A stretch of DNA of 31,452 nucleotides from Dehalococcoidia bacterium (lineage in GTDB: Bacteria > Chloroflexota > Dehalococcoidia > DSTF01 > JALHUB01): assembly GCA_035527215.1 (NCBI GenBank), contig DATLAX010000002.1, forward strand, positions 1-31,452, read 5' to 3'. Position numbers and translations under genes: made by a program. Below are positions 13,265 to 21,501 of the stretch, in pieces (within the stretch, counting starts at the first letter, position 1; the number at the start of each line of letters is the position of its first letter). The notes under the pieces were generated by a model. That model made no database searches, was not told the DNA's origin, and was given only the letters and a program-made list of their open reading frames with translations.

Positions 13265-13906
13265 CTAGCGTAGCGGCGAGTAGGGCAGCGTGAACACGGG
13301 CACCATTCGCTCGACGGGCGCGTTCTCCCGCACCGCGCGGAAGAATCGGTTCGTCCGTTCGTCCGACGGCTGATAGCCGGAGAGGCGCATCGACCCTTTC
13401 CAGATGTCCGTCACCTCGTTCTGATTGCCGGTGATCGTCCGCCAGCTCGCGACCACCGGCAGACCGGCTGCCACGCCCTCCATCGCCGCGACGAAGAAGG
13501 GCATCCTTCCCGGCGCTATCTCCATCTTTGCCAGCATGTACGTTCCCAGCGGCTTCTCCGCCGTCTCCTTCCATGCGTCGTGCAGCTTCCCGGCCAGCAG
13601 CGGGGTCAGCGGCTCCAGGAGGCGTGTCCGGCGCTTCGGCGCCAGCTCCTCCAGCCGTGCCTGGTACTCCAGCCAGGGCTCGGCGTGCTGCGCCTGGTCG
13701 CGGAACTCCTCGAACGCCGCCATGTTGTCGAACTCGAGCACCTGGATGACCTGACAGAACGACTCGATGTCGTTGTACCAGGCGGCGGCCAGACGGAAGC
13801 CCATGCGCTCCAGGGGCAACAGTTTCTCCTGCGCGAAGGCGACGAAGTTGTCGAGCGTCTCCGGGCTCGGCGGCTCAAGCGTCAGGGTCTCTTCGAGATA
13901 GATCAT
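13265..13906 (-). CDS. Tandem NIPSNAP-like dimeric alpha/beta barrel protein
   Basis: Two roughly 100-aa halves (GFRLAAAWY...QVIQVLEFDNMAAFEEFR; VVASWRTITGNQNEVTDIW) ending in PYSPLR; SD AGGAGGAG overlaps the yjbQ stop. Confidence 0.7.
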   Translation of the reverse strand: MIYLEETLTLEPPSPETLDNFVAFAQEKLLPLERMGFRLAAAWYNDIESFCQVIQVLEFDNMAAFEEFRDQAQHAEPWLEYQARLEELAPKRRTRLLEPLTPLLAGKLHDAWKETAEKPLGTYMLAKMEIAPGRMPFFVAAMEGVAAGLPVVASWRTITGNQNEVTDIWKGSMRLSGYQPSDERTNRFFRAVRENAPVERMVPVFTLPYSPLR

Positions 13907-13916
13907 CAGTCTCCTC

Positions 13917-14330
13917 CTACTCGCCGATTATCTTCACGATGACGCGTTTGCGTCGCTGACCGTCGAACTCGGTGTAGAACACCTGCTCCCACGGTCCCAG
14001 GTCCAGGCGGCCCGACGTTACCGGCAGCACCGCCTGCTGATGCACCAGCGTGCGCTTGAGGTGGGCGTCGCCGTTGTCCTCGCCGGTCTGGTGGTGACGG
14101 TAGTCGGGACGCGTCGGGGCCAGCCGCTCGACCCACTCCCAGAAGTCCTGCCACAGTCCGGGCTCGTTGTCGTTCACCCAGATCGCGGCCGTGATGTGCA
14201 TGGCGCCGACCAGGCAGAGACCCTCCTGGACGCCGGACTCGCGCACCGCCGCCTCGACGTCGTCAGTGATGTTGATGAGGTCTCGCCGCGACCTTGTGTT
14301 GAACCAGAGGTAGTGAGTGAAGCTTTTCAT
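13917..14330 (-). CDS. yjbQ: YjbQ/UPF0047 family protein
   Basis: [46 protein letters not shown]; ATG at 14330 after GGGAGG. Confidence 0.93.
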
Positions 14331-14388
14331 CCGTCCTCCCTGACGCGCGTTCGCCACGCTTCCTGCGACAACCTGACGACAGCCACTA

Positions 14389-14417
14389 ATTATCAGGGCG
14401 GGGTCGGGAAAGGACAA
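14389..14417 (-). promoter_or_regulatory. Putative promoter of yjbQ-NIPSNAP
   Basis: Minus strand TTGTCC-N17-GATAAT. Confidence 0.45.
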
Positions 14418-14481: not shown

Positions 14482-16026
14482 TTAAGGATAGCGGTTGACG
14501 AAGTACCGCCATACCATGCGAGAGACGGTCTGCCCGATGGGTATGTCGGCGTATTCGGCGCCGATGTCCTGGATGTAGAGAGAGATGGCGTAGGCGCGCT
14601 GGCCGCCTCTGCTGTCGAAGGTGACAATGCCGATGTCGTTGTCGACCCAGCCGCCGGAAATCCAGCTATAGCCGTTCTTGTGCGATACTGTGCCCTTCCC
14701 GACGCCTGCCGGCAGGAGGTACTGGAGGCCCGGCTTGACGTGCGTCATCTTCTCCATCAGATAGTCGCGCCATTGCCAGTTGACGACGCCGCCGTGGTAG
14801 AACTGGGCGAGGGCGCGGTTCGCGTCGTTGGGGGTGATGAGGTTGGGCCAGCCGCGCAGCGAGAATTCCTCCTGGTAGGCGGGAGGATGGTCGAAGACCG
14901 AGTTGCGCATCTCGAGCCTGGCCATGAGATCGCCGACTTTGTACACGCCGTCGGGCACGTTGCCTCCGGTCCTGATCAGGAGTTGGTGCGCCGTTATCGG
15001 ATTGCTGCCCCATATCGTCTGGGCGATCAAGTCGCCCACGTAGCTCTCTGGGTAGAGTCCGTTTTGCAGGTCGATGACGTTCGATAGCATCACGAACCAG
15101 TTGGTGGTGCAGGCCGCGTGCCTCGGATCGTCACCCTTGACGTCTATCGACTCGCCCGTCTGGAGATCGGTGACCGCGACGGCCACGTTGAAGCCGGACT
15201 TGGCTATCGCGGCGGCGAGCTGATCGCGCAGTTGCAGGAAGCCGGGACTTGGGGCCATCCCGAACGGCGCCATGGCGCCGCAACCCAGGGTGCCGAACGA
15301 CCAGGTGGGACTGTCATGCCAGCCGCCCGCGGCTTTCGTGTTGACGCGCCAGTAGTAGACAGAGCCGGGCGCCAGGCTATCCCAGGTGAACGTTGACCGG
15401 CTCGGCGGCAGAGGCCCCGAGCCGACGAACGCGCTGGGGGCAAAGCCGGTGTCATACAAGCTGAGGTCAAGCCACTGCTCGCCGCCGTCCAGCAGGCTGG
15501 GAGACCACGAGAAAGTGACTGCCACCATTCCCGGGAAGTCGCCGCTGCACTGTTGTGCAATGGACTGAACGGGTGGCTGGCCGCACTGGCCGGAGACGAA
15601 GCTGCCGACTTTGAGCGCGTGCCAGCCGTCTGCGTAGAGGGCGTGAACGCGGTAGTGGTACGCCGTGCTGGGAGCGATGCCGGCCCACGTGTAGGAGCCC
15701 TCGTCCGGCCCGAAGGGCCCGACGCCGGCGAACGCGCCCGCATCGAATCCCGTTTCGTAGAGGGAGAGGTCGAGCCATACTTCGCTGGCGCCGGGCGCTG
15801 CGGGCCAATTGAACGTTACTTCCGCAGTCCCCGGTGCCACGGCGCTGCACGCCTGTTCGATGGGGGTGTGCCCGCTGCTTTGGGAGCCCGGCACGGGCAC
15901 GGTCACTGCCCAGGCAACGATGAGAAGGCTGAAGAACCCGTTTCGCACAACGATCCTTCGCTCGTCTGCCGCCCAGTCCGCCGTCTCGACTTCACGCGAG
16001 ACTGGCGCCCCTGATGGCGGCGCCAC
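14482..16026 (-). CDS. Exported protein: two tandem FN3-like repeats plus class A beta-lactamase-fold domain with non-canonical active-site motifs
   Basis: Hydrophobic segment FFSLLIVAWAVTV; repeat pair at aa 57-250; C-terminal domain with VAVAVTDLQTGE, AACTTN (SxxK position), SNP (SDN position), NLITP, HKNG (KTG position), NDIGIV. Exact start uncertain (GTG 16026 or a later GTG). Confidence 0.82.
   Translation of the reverse strand: MAPPSGAPVSREVETADWAADERRIVVRNGFFSLLIVAWAVTVPVPGSQSSGHTPIEQACSAVAPGTAEVTFNWPAAPGASEVWLDLSLYETGFDAGAFAGVGPFGPDEGSYTWAGIAPSTAYHYRVHALYADGWHALKVGSFVSGQCGQPPVQSIAQQCSGDFPGMVAVTFSWSPSLLDGGEQWLDLSLYDTGFAPSAFVGSGPLPPSRSTFTWDSLAPGSVYYWRVNTKAAGGWHDSPTWSFGTLGCGAMAPFGMAPSPGFLQLRDQLAAAIAKSGFNVAVAVTDLQTGESIDVKGDDPRHAACTTNWFVMLSNVIDLQNGLYPESYVGDLIAQTIWGSNPITAHQLLIRTGGNVPDGVYKVGDLMARLEMRNSVFDHPPAYQEEFSLRGWPNLITPNDANRALAQFYHGGVVNWQWRDYLMEKMTHVKPGLQYLLPAGVGKGTVSHKNGYSWISGGWVDNDIGIVTFDSRGGQRAYAISLYIQDIGAEYADIPIGQTVSRMVWRYFVNRYP
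15277..15858 (-). repeat. Intragenic tandem duplication of a ~100-aa Cys-bounded beta-sandwich module
   Basis: EQAC...VTFNW...WLDLSLYETGF...YTWAGIAPSTAYHYRVHAL..DGWH...QCG versus QQC...VTFSW...WLDLSLYDTGF...FTWDSLAPGSVYYWRVNT..GGWH...GCG. Confidence 0.85.
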
Positions 16027-16029
16027 TCA

Positions 16030-17016
16030 CTATTGTCCACATCCTCCGGGATCCAGAATATCGGGGTTCCTCCCAACTTCCTCTTGGGACTTCCCCCATC
16101 TGCCCCGTCCAAACGAAGCGAGCGACTCATCCATGAGCGAGAGCAGGTGCTCCTTCTCGTCCGGCAGGCGATACCCCTCCCAGTCCTGCCGGAAAATCGG
16201 CGCATTCATGAAGTGGTCAAAGCAGATGTTGCCGCTGATCTCCAGCGCTTCGACCATCCGCCGCAACTCGTCGAGCATCTCGACCGGGTTCATCGGGAAG
16301 AACGCGTCGCGGCTGTACTCGTCGTACAGAGGCGTGCCGGGCGTGACCGTGAGCGGCCGCACGCGGACGTAGCTGGGGTTGGTGGCGTTCAAGACGGCAG
16401 CCGTGTTCCGCGCATGCTGCTCAGTCATCTCCCAGCCGCCGAGGCCCGGCATCACGTACTCAGAGAGCTCGAAGCCCGCGGCCATCGCCTTCCGGCCGGC
16501 ATCGATCATCTCCCGCGACGTCGCGCCCTTCTTGACACGTGTCAGGACCTCGTCGTCGCCGCTCTCAAGCCCCATATGCAGGCGGCTGAGCCCCGCCCCG
16601 TGAAGCTTTCGCAGGTCGGCGAGGTCCTTCTTCAGCACGGTCTTCGCCCGCGCATAAGAAGTGATGCGTTCGATGGACGGGAACGACTCGCGCAAATAAA
16701 GGATGATTTCGACCAGGTCGTCGGTCTTGACGATGATGGCATTGGAGTCGGCCAGGAAAGCCGTGCGCGGCTCGACCGCCCGTCCGAGACTGCGCATCTC
16801 GTCGGCGGCCGCGCGCAGTGCGTCGATGTCGCCCTTCACCTCGTCCACCGATCGCAGCATGCCTTTTCGGGGCAGGTCCTTGTAGACGGCGCAGAAGGTG
16901 CAGTAGTTCCACGGGCACCCCCGCATGACGCGAATCAGCAACGAGCGCGCCTCGCTGGGGGGGCGTATTGGCGGCAGCTCATATGTGAAGGCTTGTCCGT
17001 AGCTGGGTTCAGTCAT
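16030..17016 (-). CDS. Radical SAM protein (stand-alone core, no B12 or SPASM domain)
   Basis: IRPPSEARS, GCPWNYCTFCAVYK (CxxxCxxC), AFLADSN, MGLESGDD, VMPGLGG; no C-terminal Cys cluster. Confidence 0.93.
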   Translation of the reverse strand: MTEPSYGQAFTYELPPIRPPSEARSLLIRVMRGCPWNYCTFCAVYKDLPRKGMLRSVDEVKGDIDALRAAADEMRSLGRAVEPRTAFLADSNAIIVKTDDLVEIILYLRESFPSIERITSYARAKTVLKKDLADLRKLHGAGLSRLHMGLESGDDEVLTRVKKGATSREMIDAGRKAMAAGFELSEYVMPGLGGWEMTEQHARNTAAVLNATNPSYVRVRPLTVTPGTPLYDEYSRDAFFPMNPVEMLDELRRMVEALEISGNICFDHFMNAPIFRQDWEGYRLPDEKEHLLSLMDESLASFGRGRWGKSQEEVGRNPDILDPGGCGQ

Positions 17017-17244: not shown

Positions 17245-17273
17245 TTGACCCCTAATGGGGCAAGCACTATCTT
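17245..17273 (+). promoter_or_regulatory. Putative sigma70-type promoter heading the 17.4-24.8 kb plus-strand run
   Basis: TTGACC-N17-TATCTT about 100 nt upstream of the ATG at 17372. Confidence 0.6.
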
Positions 17274-17371
17274 TTGCCCACCGGAAGAGGCGCGAGCCCC
17301 CGGGTAACCGGTCGCCGCCGGGTGATTCCGGCCGGCTTCGCCGTCATGGTCTGCAAAAGGAGAAGATGGAT

Positions 17372-18814
17372 ATGGCAATCCGCACACCGGACGAATACAG
17401 ACAGAGTCTCAGGGACGGCCGCAGCGTCTACATGTTCGGCGAGAAGGTGGAGGACGTAACGACTCACCCCATACTCAAGATCGGCACGGAGACGGCCGCG
17501 GGCGACTTCGTCCTCACGGAATCGAAGGACCCTGCGGTACGCGACCTCTTTGTCGCGGCGCACCCGGAGACCGGCGAGCCGATAAGCCGCTACTTCACCA
17601 CGCCGAAGACGCCGCAGGACATCGACATGCGCATGCAAATGATACAGCAGTCGATCCGGCTCACCGGCGGTCTCCCCTTCGGCAAGGACATCGGCACCGA
17701 CTGTTTGAACGCCATGATGGCCACCGCCGAGCAGATGGGGAAGCCGGAGTACAAGGAGCGCGCCCGCGCCTACCTGGAGCACCTGCGCGCCAACGACCTC
17801 ATGCTCTGCGGCGCTGTCACCGACGTCAAGGGCGATAGGAGCAAAGTGCCCTCCGCCCAGATCCACCCGGACTACTACGTCCACGTCGTCGACGAGACGA
17901 AGGAAGGTATCATCGTTAAGGGCGCCAAGATCCACATCACCGGCGCTCCGGCGGCCAACGAGCTCCTCGTCGTGCCGACGCGCCAGATGCGCGAGAACGA
18001 GGCCGACTACGCCGTCTCCTTCGCCATCCCCGTTGCGACCAAGGGCGTCCACCTCGTCTGCCGCCCGGGGCACGGCGAGCGCTCACCGGCCGAGTTCCCG
18101 TCCAACCGGCCAAACCGCGGTCTCGTCGAGGCGATGATCATCTTCGACAACGTGCTCGTCCCCTGGGACCGCGTCTTCCTCTGCCGCGAATGGCAATACT
18201 CCATGCTCCTCGCCTATACCTTCGCTACCTACCACCGCTTCACCGCGGTCTCCTACAAGATACCCATCGTGGAGATCATGGCCGGCATCGCGCTGGCGAT
18301 GGCGGAGGTCAACGGGATCGAAAGAATCGGCCACATCCGCGGCAAGCTGTCGGAGGTCATAGCCTACGTCGAGACTCTCAAGGCGCTGGGCACCGCTGCC
18401 ATCAAGTCGCCCGTCTACTACGGCGAGATCTGCGTGCCGAGCCCGCTGATCACCAACATGGCGAAGCTGCACTTCGCGAAGAACTACCACGAGATCATCA
18501 AGACGATCCAGGACATCGCCGGCGGCATCATCACCACCATGCCGACCTACCTCGACTGGCAGAACCCGGACATTCACGATTACCTCGACCACTACCTGGG
18601 CGGCTCGGCGAAGTACACGAGCGAGGAGCGAATGCGCGTCATCCAAATGACGCGCAACATGGTAGCATCCGCCGATAGCGCCTCCATGGAGGTGACCACC
18701 GTCCACGCCGAAGGCTCCATGGAAGCGCAACGCATGATGATCCTTATCGAATCGCCGCTGAAGCAGTACCGCGACCTGGCGCTGATGGCGTCGGGCGTTC
18801 AGCCAAAGGACTGA
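17372..18814 (+). CDS. 4-hydroxybutyryl-CoA dehydratase (AbfD) / 4-hydroxyphenylacetate 3-hydroxylase (HpaB) family flavoprotein lacking the AbfD Fe-S cysteines
   Basis: VYMFGEKVED, GAVTDVKGDRS, KGAKIHITG, DYAVSFA, FDNVLVPWDRVFLC, YHR, QDIAGG, EERMRV, HAEGS..AQR; ATG at 17372 after AAGGAG. Confidence 0.9.
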   Translation: MAIRTPDEYRQSLRDGRSVYMFGEKVEDVTTHPILKIGTETAAGDFVLTESKDPAVRDLFVAAHPETGEPISRYFTTPKTPQDIDMRMQMIQQSIRLTGGLPFGKDIGTDCLNAMMATAEQMGKPEYKERARAYLEHLRANDLMLCGAVTDVKGDRSKVPSAQIHPDYYVHVVDETKEGIIVKGAKIHITGAPAANELLVVPTRQMRENEADYAVSFAIPVATKGVHLVCRPGHGERSPAEFPSNRPNRGLVEAMIIFDNVLVPWDRVFLCREWQYSMLLAYTFATYHRFTAVSYKIPIVEIMAGIALAMAEVNGIERIGHIRGKLSEVIAYVETLKALGTAAIKSPVYYGEICVPSPLITNMAKLHFAKNYHEIIKTIQDIAGGIITTMPTYLDWQNPDIHDYLDHYLGGSAKYTSEERMRVIQMTRNMVASADSASMEVTTVHAEGSMEAQRMMILIESPLKQYRDLALMASGVQPKD

Positions 18815-18833
18815 AGCGGGGTCAAAAAACAGC

Positions 18834-18857
18834 GTAGCCGAGACTTTCCAGTCTCGG
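18834..18857 (+). repeat. Single GTAG-type REP palindrome (third sequence class)
   Basis: GTAG-CCGAGACT-TTCC-AGTCTCGG: perfect 8-bp stem directly after GTAG, intergenic. Confidence 0.7.
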
Positions 18858-18901
18858 CGGCACCCGACCCGCTCTGGGTACCTGATCGAGGGAGGAGTGC
18901 G

Positions 18902-20341
18902 ATGGCGTCGCCAAACAAGAAGAGCAGGCTATTCGGCGAGAAGATGTCGCGGCGGAGACTGTTGGAGACGGGCGCGGTCGCGGCCATAGGTGTCGCCGGT
19001 GCCGGCCTCGCCGCAGCGTGTACGGAAGAAGACGGGGACAAAAGCATCACTCCTGCCGCCAGCGTGCCCGCCGCCGCCGCGACCGCCTTCCGCAGCCCGA
19101 CCGGGTCGCCGACGCCGGGCTCGAGCTCCATCATCAGCCTCGGCGGCAATCCGGAGGGCATTGCGGAGGTAGCCCCCGGCACCATCTTCTTCCCCTACTT
19201 CGGCAACGTCATCGCCCTCCAGACGGATGACGGCATCGTCATCGTCGACACGTCTCTCCAGGGAAACGGCCCGCCCATCGTCGAGGAGCTGCGAAAACGG
19301 ACTGATCTGCCCGTCAAGACGATCATTTACACTCATGGCCACGTCGATCACGTCGGCGGCACGGATGCCTTCCTCAAGGACGCCGACGAACGCGGCCACG
19401 AACGCCCCACCGTTATCGGCCACGAGGGCGTCATCCCGCGGTTCCAGCGCTATGAGCGCATGGCTGGCTGGATTCGCTTTCTAAATGCCCAGCAATGGGG
19501 CGTCGCTCCGCCGGACCCGTCCCGTCCCGCCCCCGTCCCGGTCTTCGTCTACCCTGACACTACCTACCACGACCGCACCTCAGTCGAAGTCGGGGGTGAG
19601 ACTTTCGAGCTGATCTACGGCATGGGCGAGACCGACGACCACACCTGGGTCTGGGCGCCGGAACGGAAGATCGCGGTTGCCGGGGACTTCTTCACCTGGG
19701 CCTGCCCGAACGTCGGCAATCCCTGGAAGGTCCAGCGCTATACCCGGGGTTGGGCGGAGGGCCTGGAAGCCATCGCCGACAAACGACCCTCTATCCTGCT
19801 GCCCGGCCACGGCCCGCCCATCGAAGGCGAGGACAACGTGCAGACTGCCTGCTTCGACGTCGCCGCCTATCTGCGTTCCATCGATGATCAGGTCGTCGAG
19901 CGCATGAACAAGGGACAGTGGCTGGAGCAGATACTGCGCGAGGTAGAGCCCCCCGCCGATCTCGCCGCCAAGCCCTATCTCCAGCCCATATACGGCCACC
20001 CGAAGTTCATCGTGCAGGCCGTCTGGCGGCAATACGGCGGCTGGTATGACGGCAACCCCGCCGACTTCTTCGCTGCCGCAACGGCTGACCAGGCCACCGA
20101 GATCGTCAAGCTCGTGGGCGTGAGTGCGCTTCTCTCCCGTGCCCGCGACCTCCACACAACCGGCGATCTGCCGCTGGCCTGCCATCTGGTCGACTGGGTA
20201 TGCAAGGTCGAGCCCGAGAACGCCGAGGCGCGGGCTCTGCAACGTGACCTCTTCCAGGCGCGCAGCGAGGTCGAAGCGAACATGATGGCGCGCAACGTGT
20301 TCAAGGGAGCCGCCGCGGAGGCGGAGAAGCACCTGACCTGA
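18902..20341 (+). CDS. Tat-exported lipoprotein, metallo-beta-lactamase-fold alkyl/aryl-sulfatase family (SdsA/BDS1-like, with dimerisation domain)
   Basis: SRRRLL Tat motif and LAAAC lipobox; THGHVDH (HxHxDH); GETDDHTWVW, GDFF...PNVGNP, LLPGHG, PIYGHP, YGGWYDGNPA. Confidence 0.88.
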   Translation: MASPNKKSRLFGEKMSRRRLLETGAVAAIGVAGAGLAAACTEEDGDKSITPAASVPAAAATAFRSPTGSPTPGSSSIISLGGNPEGIAEVAPGTIFFPYFGNVIALQTDDGIVIVDTSLQGNGPPIVEELRKRTDLPVKTIIYTHGHVDHVGGTDAFLKDADERGHERPTVIGHEGVIPRFQRYERMAGWIRFLNAQQWGVAPPDPSRPAPVPVFVYPDTTYHDRTSVEVGGETFELIYGMGETDDHTWVWAPERKIAVAGDFFTWACPNVGNPWKVQRYTRGWAEGLEAIADKRPSILLPGHGPPIEGEDNVQTACFDVAAYLRSIDDQVVERMNKGQWLEQILREVEPPADLAAKPYLQPIYGHPKFIVQAVWRQYGGWYDGNPADFFAAATADQATEIVKLVGVSALLSRARDLHTTGDLPLACHLVDWVCKVEPENAEARALQRDLFQARSEVEANMMARNVFKGAAAEAEKHLT

Positions 20342-20361
20342 GTCGACGGGAGCCCGGAACT

Positions 20362-21501
20362 ATGGAGCGCGCCGAGCGCGAAGCAGGTGTCCTCGGAAGG
20401 CCGCTATCGCGGCGGCGTCTCCTTCAGGCCGCTGCAGCATCCGCCATGATGGCCGCAGGCCTCGCCCCGACGGCATGCGACGACGAGGGCCGAGAAAGGG
20501 AGTCCAACATGGCTGAGGCGCCAACGGTCGAAAAGACAGCGGCCGGCGGGTCGGTGGTTGAGACGATGACCGGCCCTGTCGCCACCTCCGACCTCGGTTT
20601 CACGCTCATGCACGAGCACATCATTGTCCAGGCAGAAGGCGTCGTCCGCAACTTCCCCAGCGTCTGGGATGAGCAGGCGGAACTGGACAAGGCCGTCGAG
20701 ACGCTCACGACCCTCAAGGCAAGGGGCGTCGACACCATCGTCGATCCAACGGTACTCGGCATCGGCCGCGATGTCCCTCGCCTGCTGCCGGTCGTCGAGA
20801 AGGCGGGGATTCAGGTGGTGGTTGCCACCGGCCTCTACACTTTCAACGAGCTGCCGTCCTACTTCCTGAGCCGGGAGATTGACGAGATGGCCGGTCTCTT
20901 CGTCGCCGACATCACCGACGGCATCCAGGGGACGAACGTGAAAGCCGCGATCCTGAAGTGCGCCACCGACGCGCCCGGCGTCACCCCGGGCGTGGAGAAG
21001 GTGTTGCGGGCGGTCGCGCGCGCCCACCTGCGCACGGGCGCTCCCATCACGACCCACACGCATGCCGCCACGCAACGCGGTTTGGATCAGCAGCGGGTCT
21101 TCGCCGAGGAGGGCGTCGACCTGACTCGCGTCATCATCGGCCACAGCGGCGACAGCGAAGACCTCGACTACCTCACGAAGCTGCTCGACGCCGGCTCCTA
21201 CATCGGCATGGACCGCTTCGGCCTCGACATCTTCCTGCCTGAGGAGAAGCGCATCGCCACCGTCGCCGCGCTCTGCCGGATGGGCCACACGGAGCGCATG
21301 GTCCTCTCCCACGACGCCATGGTCTACTTCGACATGTACAAGCCGGAGGTGGTCAAGGGATTTGCGCCCAATTGGAGCCACTACCGCATCGTCGATCACA
21401 TCATCCCGGCGCTGCTGGAGGCCGGCGTCAGTCAGGCGCAAATCGATGCGATGACGCGAAAGAACCCGCGTCGCATCTTCGAGAACGTGAGAACTTACTA
21501 G
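20362..21501 (+). CDS. Tat-signal lipoprotein, phosphotriesterase family (PTE/PHP/PLL amidohydrolase)
   Basis: SRRRLL and APTAC; GFTLMHEH, ILKCATD (carboxylated Lys), TTHTH, IGHSGD, GMDRFG, LSHDA; second SD-preceded ATG at 20509. Confidence 0.92.
   Translation: MERAEREAGVLGRPLSRRRLLQAAAASAMMAAGLAPTACDDEGRERESNMAEAPTVEKTAAGGSVVETMTGPVATSDLGFTLMHEHIIVQAEGVVRNFPSVWDEQAELDKAVETLTTLKARGVDTIVDPTVLGIGRDVPRLLPVVEKAGIQVVVATGLYTFNELPSYFLSREIDEMAGLFVADITDGIQGTNVKAAILKCATDAPGVTPGVEKVLRAVARAHLRTGAPITTHTHAATQRGLDQQRVFAEEGVDLTRVIIGHSGDSEDLDYLTKLLDAGSYIGMDRFGLDIFLPEEKRIATVAALCRMGHTERMVLSHDAMVYFDMYKPEVVKGFAPNWSHYRIVDHIIPALLEAGVSQAQIDAMTRKNPRRIFENVRTY

Follow-up and report, generated by a model that had tools for sequence, protein, structure and literature searches.

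The gene considered here lies on the minus strand of a 31,452-nucleotide stretch of DNA, called the window below, from a Dehalococcoidia bacterium (GenBank assembly GCA_035527215.1, contig DATLAX010000002.1, positions 1 to 31,452). Its product is a predicted exported protein whose C-terminal domain has the fold of the class A beta-lactamases and of the penicillin-binding protein (PBP) PBP-A, and in which a cysteine, Cys306, stands at the position of the catalytic Ser70. Comparison of the homologues indicates that serine and cysteine have been interchanged at the nucleophile site within the family, and we propose from these alignments that the Cys-type class A-like proteins constitute a new Chloroflexota family. 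They are a strongly conserved, natural variant of a well-known fold that has apparently gone undescribed; no description of a natural Cys form of this fold was found in the open literature searched, subscription journals being outside its coverage. We consider it rather probable that these proteins form a thiol acyl-enzyme on the cell envelope, a variant with a Cys-His pair being included in this estimate. For the narrower reading that we favor, an acyl-transfer enzyme of the envelope that uses a thiol nucleophile and works without a base of the Lys73/Glu166 type, belief and doubt are about equal.

A class A-like domain with a cysteine at the Ser70 position

Residues are numbered throughout from GTG 16026, the start of the long open reading frame on the minus strand. 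The Pfam family PF13354 (Beta-lactamase2) matches residues 331-481 with 39.8 bits against a cut-off of 22 (E 4.1e-10), which places the protein in this family, and precomputed PF13354 matches are present in all homologues. The AlphaFold2 (AF2) model of residues 255-514 has a predicted local distance difference test (pLDDT) value of 96.8. Against known structures, this domain model reached template modelling (TM) scores of 0.76-0.81 in Foldseek and, by VIA, Z values of about 30 with class A enzymes and PBP-A, with a root-mean-square deviation (rmsd) of 2.0-2.5 over 236-242 residues; the best VIA matches were 9bzn (Z 30.4) and 2j7v (Z 30.1), with an rmsd of 2.0-2.3 over 236 residues. Its two-domain fold (alpha/beta plus all-alpha), a nucleophile position at the N-terminus of helix 2 and a KTG strand along the sheet edge place the domain in the class A/PBP-A structural family. 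The NCBIfam model NF033103 (bla_class_A), with an equivalog cut-off of 200, gave only 35.8 bits, and by such membership tests the protein is not a beta-lactamase. A Pfam scan of the window protein (P0001) gave no match to PF03734 (YkuD), and a look-up in the ESM Atlas returned only generic 'Beta-lactamase2' clusters.

The initial annotation had described an active site with all three motifs rewritten, AACTTN at the SxxK position, S341-N-P at the SDN position and K450-N-G at the KTG position, within an uninterrupted frame and between intact flanking motifs. All of these were found where they had been placed, including VAVTDLQTGE (from residue 283), NLITP (395) and NDIGIV (463). Equivalences with class A enzymes were taken from HMMER alignments to TLA-1 and from an hhalign comparison with TEM-1, the latter with a probability of only 24%. 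Cys306 and Asn309 pair with the Ser and the Lys of STYK in TLA-1 (HMMER), so that the Ser70-x-x-Lys73 motif is not present. Of the Ser130-Asp-Asn132 motif the serine is kept, the Asp131 position is Asn342, and the Asn132 equivalent is lost, its place being taken by Pro343 (HMMER) or Ile344 (hhalign). Lys234 and Gly236 are retained as Lys450 and Gly452, and Thr/Ser235 is replaced by Asn451, an asparagine found throughout the KNG clade described below. As far as the alignment of the omega loop can be followed, in a register that is uncertain, Pro381 falls at position 166 and the loop holds no conserved Glu, which suggests that the Glu166/Asn170 pair is lacking.

In the AF2 model, Cys306 (domain residue 52) is the first residue of helix 2 (51-67), the Ser70 site, which confirms the place at the N-terminus of this helix that had been predicted for it. 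The loop that links helices 77-86 and 89-100 holds S341 and N342, and K450 is part of the strand 192-202, the KTG strand. The nucleophile is separated from the Ser130 equivalent by 35 residues, against about 60 in class A enzymes and about 61-63 in PBP-A and TLA-1. About 26 alpha-domain residues between helix 2 and the SDN loop are thus deleted, and this holds for the whole family, SxxK members included. The deleted helix 3/4 region carries, in class A enzymes, the cleft wall with residues 104-105. Cys306 is moreover the sole cysteine of the domain, the other four cysteines of the protein bracketing its FN3 domains. Since the domain has no second cysteine, Cys306 is an unpaired thiol in an exported protein.

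The motifs of the window protein are strongly conserved. A word-indexed search gave 261 relatives, the best 120 of which were aligned with the window protein (121 sequences, 49-100% identity). C306, N309 and HKNG are present in 121 of 121 sequences, at a mean column identity of 65%, which is far more than chance would give; S341, K450, N451 and G452 are invariant, S-N at 341-342 occurs in nearly all of the best 120, and 44 domain positions are invariant or nearly so. The invariant residues C306, N309, S341, K450, N451 and G452 are also kept in 63 CxxN representatives at 50% clustering. At 80 genome loci, Cys306 is encoded by TGC (71) or TGT (9), Asn309 by AAC (70) or AAT (9), and Ser341 by codons of both the AGY and the TCN families. 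Because the motifs are conserved (C..N, S-N/D-P/A and HKNG) while their codons vary synonymously, the motif changes are, on this sequence evidence, selected and not the result of decay. This is in agreement with the initial annotation, which had judged the substitutions to be selected and had raised CxxN/SNP/KNG as a possible conserved clade.

Serine and cysteine in the wider family

When 1.84 billion representatives were searched exhaustively with a profile, 116 matches were obtained at E <= 1e-30 and 996 at E <= 1e-3, and motifs were extracted from the best 150 of the 996. Among these 150, the family comprises more than 100 clusters that grade into four motif types. The first, that of the window protein, reads G-C-x-x-N / S-[NDS]-[PA] / D-H-P-P / H-K-N-G, and the second T-G-C-T-I-N / G-x-S-x-P-P / D-H-V-P / H-K-[IV]-G. 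The third has the cysteine with the lysine retained (A-A-C-T-I-K / G-P-S-N-T / T-H-P-P-G / Y-H-K-[IV]-G), and the fourth comprises the canonical A-A-S-T-I-K forms. Across the more than 100 clusters the nucleophile position holds only Ser or Cys, the classic signature of a working nucleophile.

In a tree computed without the motif columns, the KNG/CxxN clade coheres (SH-aLRT 90; 46 representatives), the remaining Cys and Ser forms are interleaved, and at least four Ser/Cys changes are required. Constraining all Cys rows to a single clade cost 54 log-likelihood units with p 0.025 in the approximately unbiased (AU) test, a value that is indicative only since the group was defined post hoc. One sequence of Nitrolancea sp. 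(P0196 / P0275), with canonical S-T-I-K and S-D-N motifs and no omega-loop His, is placed inside the CxxK clade (support 97-98); either it has reverted to the serine state at several sites, or its placement is an artefact of the tree. The signature that we propose for the new family consists of G-C-x-x-N, S-[NDS]-[PA], D-H-P-P, H-K-N-G-[FYW] and D-N-D-x-G, a Cys-Ser spacing of 35 residues and a signal peptide or lipobox, and all of these features are found in the window protein and in the KNG clade of 46 representatives. Domain fusions were also observed among three relatives (P0229, P0165 and P0184), in which an SxxK form is fused to an NlpC/P60 peptidoglycan endopeptidase domain and Cys forms of 756-794 aa are fused to NHL/YVTN or PD40 beta-propellers.

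Among characterised proteins, PBP-A of Thermosynechococcus elongatus (Tll2115, PDB 2j7v), a class A-like DD-carboxy/endopeptidase without Glu166 (PMC11189452), ranks first in Foldseek and shares the first rank by VIA (Z 30.1, rmsd 2.3, 236 residues), at about 21% sequence identity. Both are exported domains behind an N-terminal extension in hosts with peptidoglycan, both keep Ser130 and Lys234, and both have a hydrophobic residue in place of Glu166 (Leu158 in PBP-A, Pro381 in the window protein). However, PBP-A has the motifs Ser61-x-x-Lys64, Ser122-x-Asn124 and Lys219-Thr-Gly where the window protein has Cys-x-x-Asn, Ser-Asn-Pro and Lys-Asn-Gly, so that the motif definition of the PBP-A family (PMC11189452), a family further defined by DD-peptidase activity on (amidated) muropeptides, does not cover it. 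The two differ as well in the spacing from nucleophile to SDN motif (61 against 35 residues), which corresponds to the deletion of about 26 residues.

The best sequence matches are subclass A2 class A enzymes (TLA-1, PER, CME) and the precursor-like LRA-5, with E 2.6e-12 for TLA-1 when a profile was used. Subclass A2 enzymes share the H-K-x-G and N-D-I-G-I motifs and an Asn at 179, and match in fold with Z 29-30; LRA-5 also lacks Glu166. In contrast to class A enzymes, the window protein has no Ser70, Lys73, Asn132, Glu166 or Thr/Ser235, and its alpha domain is shortened. As a separate observation on class A genes, the blaTEM genes of two E. coli plasmids (L095, NZ_CP096180.1, and L096, NZ_CP138406.1) are both broken into two open frames, at one and the same position.

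Engineered S70C variants of TEM, KPC-2 and OXA-48 stay active and form thioester acyl-enzymes that turn over (PMC6391942). They have the same fold with a Cys at the nucleophile position, but they are laboratory mutants that retain Lys73 and the serine machinery, whereas the family described here is natural and ancient, and its CxxN clades have also replaced Lys73, Asn132 and Thr235. A functional analogy may further be drawn with L,D-transpeptidases (YkuD), NlpC/P60 enzymes and sortases, which are exported enzymes of peptidoglycan and use an unpaired catalytic Cys and a thioester intermediate, although their folds are unrelated and they have established Cys-His pairs.

Catalytic and alternative readings of Cys306

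The interchange of Ser and Cys in the family, together with the position of Cys306 as the sole unpaired cysteine of an exported protein, leads us to favor the thiol nucleophile, which was one of three options in the initial annotation. In the mechanism that we propose, Cys306 would replace Ser70 as the acyl-accepting nucleophile, with its thiolate at the N-terminus of helix 2, where the helix dipole, the carboxamide of Asn309 and the backbone oxyanion hole would stabilise it. Such a thiolate would have no need of a Lys73/Glu166 general base, and the residues of the Lys73 hydrogen-bond network are indeed all replaced: Asn stands in place of Lys73 and Pro or Ala in place of Asn132, while the Glu166 position is a Pro. 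The pair Ser341-Lys450, equivalent to Ser130-Lys234, would protonate the leaving group. Slow hydrolysis or transfer to an amine acceptor might then resolve the thioester, in a PBP-like rather than beta-lactamase-like manner, given that there is no Glu166-like base. A peptide or amide, either from the peptidoglycan layer or from another envelope polymer, is the probable substrate, and it would differ from classical acyl-D-Ala-D-Ala in view of the altered contacts at Asn132 and Thr235 and the loss of about 26 cleft-wall residues.

More tentatively, and with slightly more doubt than belief, we suggest that these proteins, which might be termed thio-PBPs, are the first natural lineage with a Cys nucleophile on the Ser-Lys fold (MEROPS clan SE type). 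The lineage would have arisen by a switch from Ser to Cys (CxxK), would then have shed the Lys73/Asn132/Glu166 network (CxxN), and would remodel or cross-link the Chloroflexota wall via a thioester.

The distribution of the family is consistent with a role in the wall. The host genome (1.87 Mb, 91% complete) has a single copy of the gene, together with three PBP transpeptidase, two YkuD and two SEDS genes, the YkuD genes being on other contigs, and from these genes we infer that the host makes peptidoglycan. Of 201 evenly sampled Dehalococcoidia genomes with a completeness of at least 80%, 27 have the family and 89 the PBP transpeptidase domain PF00905; all 27 carriers, from about 12 families, are PF00905-positive, and the family was found in none of the 112 PBP-negative genomes. 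The absence of a PF00905 match in 112 of the 201 genomes fits the existence of wall-less lineages within the class. S11 DD-carboxypeptidases (PF00768) co-occur in most carriers, which points to an extra wall-associated function and not to a simple replacement. This link of the family with peptidoglycan-bearing lineages, like the CxxK intermediates, the shortened alpha domain and the proline at the Glu166 position, goes beyond the initial annotation.

Several points weigh against the enzyme that we favor. To our knowledge, all SxxK acyl-transferases characterised so far have an essential Lys73, and no other base that could take its place was identified here. The invariant His380 aligns with Arg164, opposite Asn395/Asp179, and not with Glu166, in agreement with a bridge in the model, and it is also present in 10 of 17 SxxK relatives. 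Part of the association with peptidoglycan may come from the small size of genomes in wall-less lineages, and genomes that are related do not count as independent samples. Replacement of the S11 DD-carboxypeptidases by the family was ruled out, as PF00768 is present in most carriers. Finally, no conserved operon partner that would point to a substrate was found at the 80 loci.

The place of His380 bears on the first alternative, a papain-like triad of Cys306, His380 and Asn309, in which the His would reach the site from the omega loop to form a thiolate-imidazolium pair oriented by Asn309. Among the Cys rows, 79 of 84 have His380 and 100% have Pro382; among the Ser rows, the figures are 10 of 17 and 29%. 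P0196, the SxxK form nested in the CxxK clade, has Gly instead of His380. The D-H-P motif resembles x-E166-P167 of class A enzymes, whose omega loop carries their second catalytic residue, and Asn309 occupies the Lys73 site, which contacts residue 166 in these enzymes. However, HMMER (TLA-1) and hhalign (TEM-1) put His380 at position 164, Pro381 at 166 and Asn395 at 179. In the AF2 model a beta-bridge joins residue 377 to residues 396-397, which sets residues 379-380 beside Asn395, so that His380 probably sits at the neck of the omega loop. Moreover, an outgroup SxxK clade also has His380, and the association of His380 and Pro382 with Cys represents only 3-4 independent contrasts. The Cys-His dyad was downgraded as the main model once these alignments and the model bridge had placed His380 at the neck, and we now regard the triad as unlikely.

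The losses around the nucleophile could also be those of a pseudoenzyme, that is, a lectin-like or regulatory module that binds the wall or a ligand, is displayed on FN3 domains and uses Cys306 for binding only. The canonical base Lys73 is lost, as are Asn132 and Thr235, there is no Glu166 equivalent, and the FN3 display architecture would suit a binding module. But a dead nucleophile site should drift, whereas more than 100 clusters have nothing but Cys or Ser here; an unpaired cysteine outside the cytoplasm carries a cost if it serves no use; and Ser341, Lys450 and Gly452 are still invariant. The protein also has no signalling output domain, and the sensor suggested in the initial annotation finds no support in a protein with only a signal peptide or lipobox and neither a transmembrane nor a cytoplasmic output domain. 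A non-catalytic role appears quite improbable.

A natural thiol beta-lactamase, or a beta-lactam trap that shields the wall machinery in soil, is very unlikely. The class A fold, the weak matches to models of subclass A2 extended-spectrum beta-lactamases (ESBL), the origin of the organism in a soil metagenome and the presence in carriers of PBPs to protect would be in keeping with it, and engineered S70C enzymes hydrolyse or fragment penicillins (PMC6391942). Nevertheless, the bla_class_A score is far below its cut-off (35.8 against 200 bits), the Glu166/Asn170 deacylation machinery is missing, neither the carboxylate contact of Thr235 nor the acylamide contact of Asn132 is preserved, and the cleft wall with residues 104-105 is deleted. 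The gene is also chromosomal and in single copy, with lineage synteny rather than signs of mobility. A redox or metal site, by sulfenylation sensing or in a Cys/His/Asp center, is highly improbable: a single reactive cysteine at a helix N-terminus and the invariant His380, His449, Asp379, Asp462 and Asp464 as possible ligands would allow it, but the domain has no second cysteine as a resolving partner (which also removes the redox switch of the initial annotation), His449 and N-D-x-G are inherited from subclass A2-type enzymes that bind no metal, and Ser/Cys interchange suits a nucleophile better than a metal ligand.

Gene organization, occurrence and significance

The uninterrupted open reading frame at 14482-16026 has 514 codons, in a window of 65% G+C. 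GTG 15948 has an AAGGA box 5 nt ahead of it and is also the codon at which a database entry of 488 aa (P0002), 100% identical to the window protein, begins; for both reasons it is the most likely start, and Cys306 of the long frame is likely to be Cys280 of the protein. Coordinates are collected in the table.

Table. Positions in the window of the gene, its domains and motifs, and the neighboring genes
Feature	Position	Strand	Remarks
Most likely gene	14482..15948	-	488 aa + stop; GTG start = long-ORF (open reading frame) residue 27
Signal peptide or N-terminal anchor	15889..15948	-	M-R-N-G then hydrophobic FFSLLIVAWAVTVPVP; hydrophobicity scan
FN3 domain 1	15556..15849	-	residues ~60-157
FN3 domain 2	15280..15549	-	residues ~160-249
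Class A beta-lactamase/PBP-A-fold domain, shortened alpha domain	14485..15264	-	residues 255-514; PF13354, AF2
C306-T-T-N309 (SxxK position)	15100..15111	-	AACTTN from residue 304; C306 = TGC 15109-15111, N309 = 15100-15102
S341-N342-P343 (SDN loop)	14998..15006	-	Ser130 equivalent kept
D379-H380-P381-P382, omega-loop region	14881..14892	-	His aligns with Arg164, Pro381 with Glu166
N395-L-I-T-P	14830..14844	-	Asn395 aligns with Asp179, other side of omega-loop neck
H449-K450-N451-G452 (KTG strand)	14671..14682	-	pairs with HKTG of TLA-1
D462-N-D-I-G466, strand after KTG	14629..14643	-	invariant; N-D-x-G part common to subclass A2
NIPSNAP-like protein	13265-13906	-	downstream of gene
YjbQ/UPF0047	13917-14417	-	downstream of gene
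Radical SAM protein (PF04055, CxxxCxxC)	16030-17016	-	ends 4 nt before long ORF, ~80 nt before likely start
HpaB-type flavin monooxygenase, metallo-beta-lactamase/alkyl-sulfatase-like, phosphotriesterase-family cluster	17255-21501	+	divergent

The sequence and the models suggest that the protein is exported and that its catalytic domain is displayed on two FN3 domains. The signal peptide or anchor spans about residues 27-50; in the family, 96 of 121 members have a hydrophobic stretch within their first 90 residues and some have a lipobox (LMTAC). The initial annotation had placed the domain on a repeat stalk, and the repeats are indeed there, although they are two ordinary FN3 domains and the label of a stalk finds no support. 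Residues 56-254 consist of two repeats with a mutual identity of 45% (E 3e-24), bracketed by the cysteine pairs C60/C148 and C160/C249, which probably form disulphides. The fn3 Pfam match of the second repeat (E 1.5e-4) is below the cut-off; the AF2 model of the region is all-beta (pLDDT 88.9), and it matches tandem FNIII pairs in Foldseek (probability 1.0). Family members have zero, one or two FN3 modules.

The order radical SAM protein, gene, YjbQ and NIPSNAP is retained only in relatives at 68-70% identity, the divergent cluster at 17255-21501 is also kept beside the gene at two other loci (L001 and L002), and distant homologues have unrelated neighbors. A crude clustering of the neighbors at the 80 loci gave lineage-specific synteny only, with dUTPase, acyl-CoA dehydrogenase and CoA-transferase genes. 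A functional operon was ruled out, as the order is kept among close relatives only. One homologue adjoins LysM/transglycosylase genes, and this and the NlpC/P60 fusion are weak hints of wall biology. In a genome of the same order (G016:C3:781835-782606), the family gene is matched in two adjacent pieces (profile 3-70 and 68-260) in separate open frames, which may be a frameshift or a pseudogene.

The 80 loci come nearly all from metagenome-assembled genomes of Dehalococcoidia or other Chloroflexota, with one Woykebacteria bin and one Acidobacteria bin; Herpetosiphonaceae have CxxK forms, and Nitrolancea has an SxxK relative. The public runs listed include none of RNA, and the DNA runs are soil metagenomes, one of which is maybe the source of this DNA. 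The homologues have all been annotated in general terms ('serine hydrolase', 'beta-lactamase class A' or hypothetical), and for these genes the labels 'class A beta-lactamase' and 'serine hydrolase' are incorrect in detail.

The beta-lactamase/PBP superfamily comprises the textbook Ser-Lys acyl-transferases, and the antibiotics in widest use are directed against it. Only Ser-Lys and Ser-Tyr dyads appear in a survey from 2025 of the catalytic cores of the superfamily (PMC12073871), and the question of why DD-transpeptidases use Ser and LD-transpeptidases Cys has so far been studied only via engineered mutants (PMC6391942). The clade described here offers a natural evolutionary series, from SxxK through CxxK to CxxN, on one scaffold, in which the co-evolution of nucleophile identity and general-base network can be tested. 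If these proteins are indeed thio-PBPs, their response to beta-lactams would be intrinsically different from that of serine PBPs. The family may also bring to light new chemistry of the cell wall in the Chloroflexota, which have been little studied.

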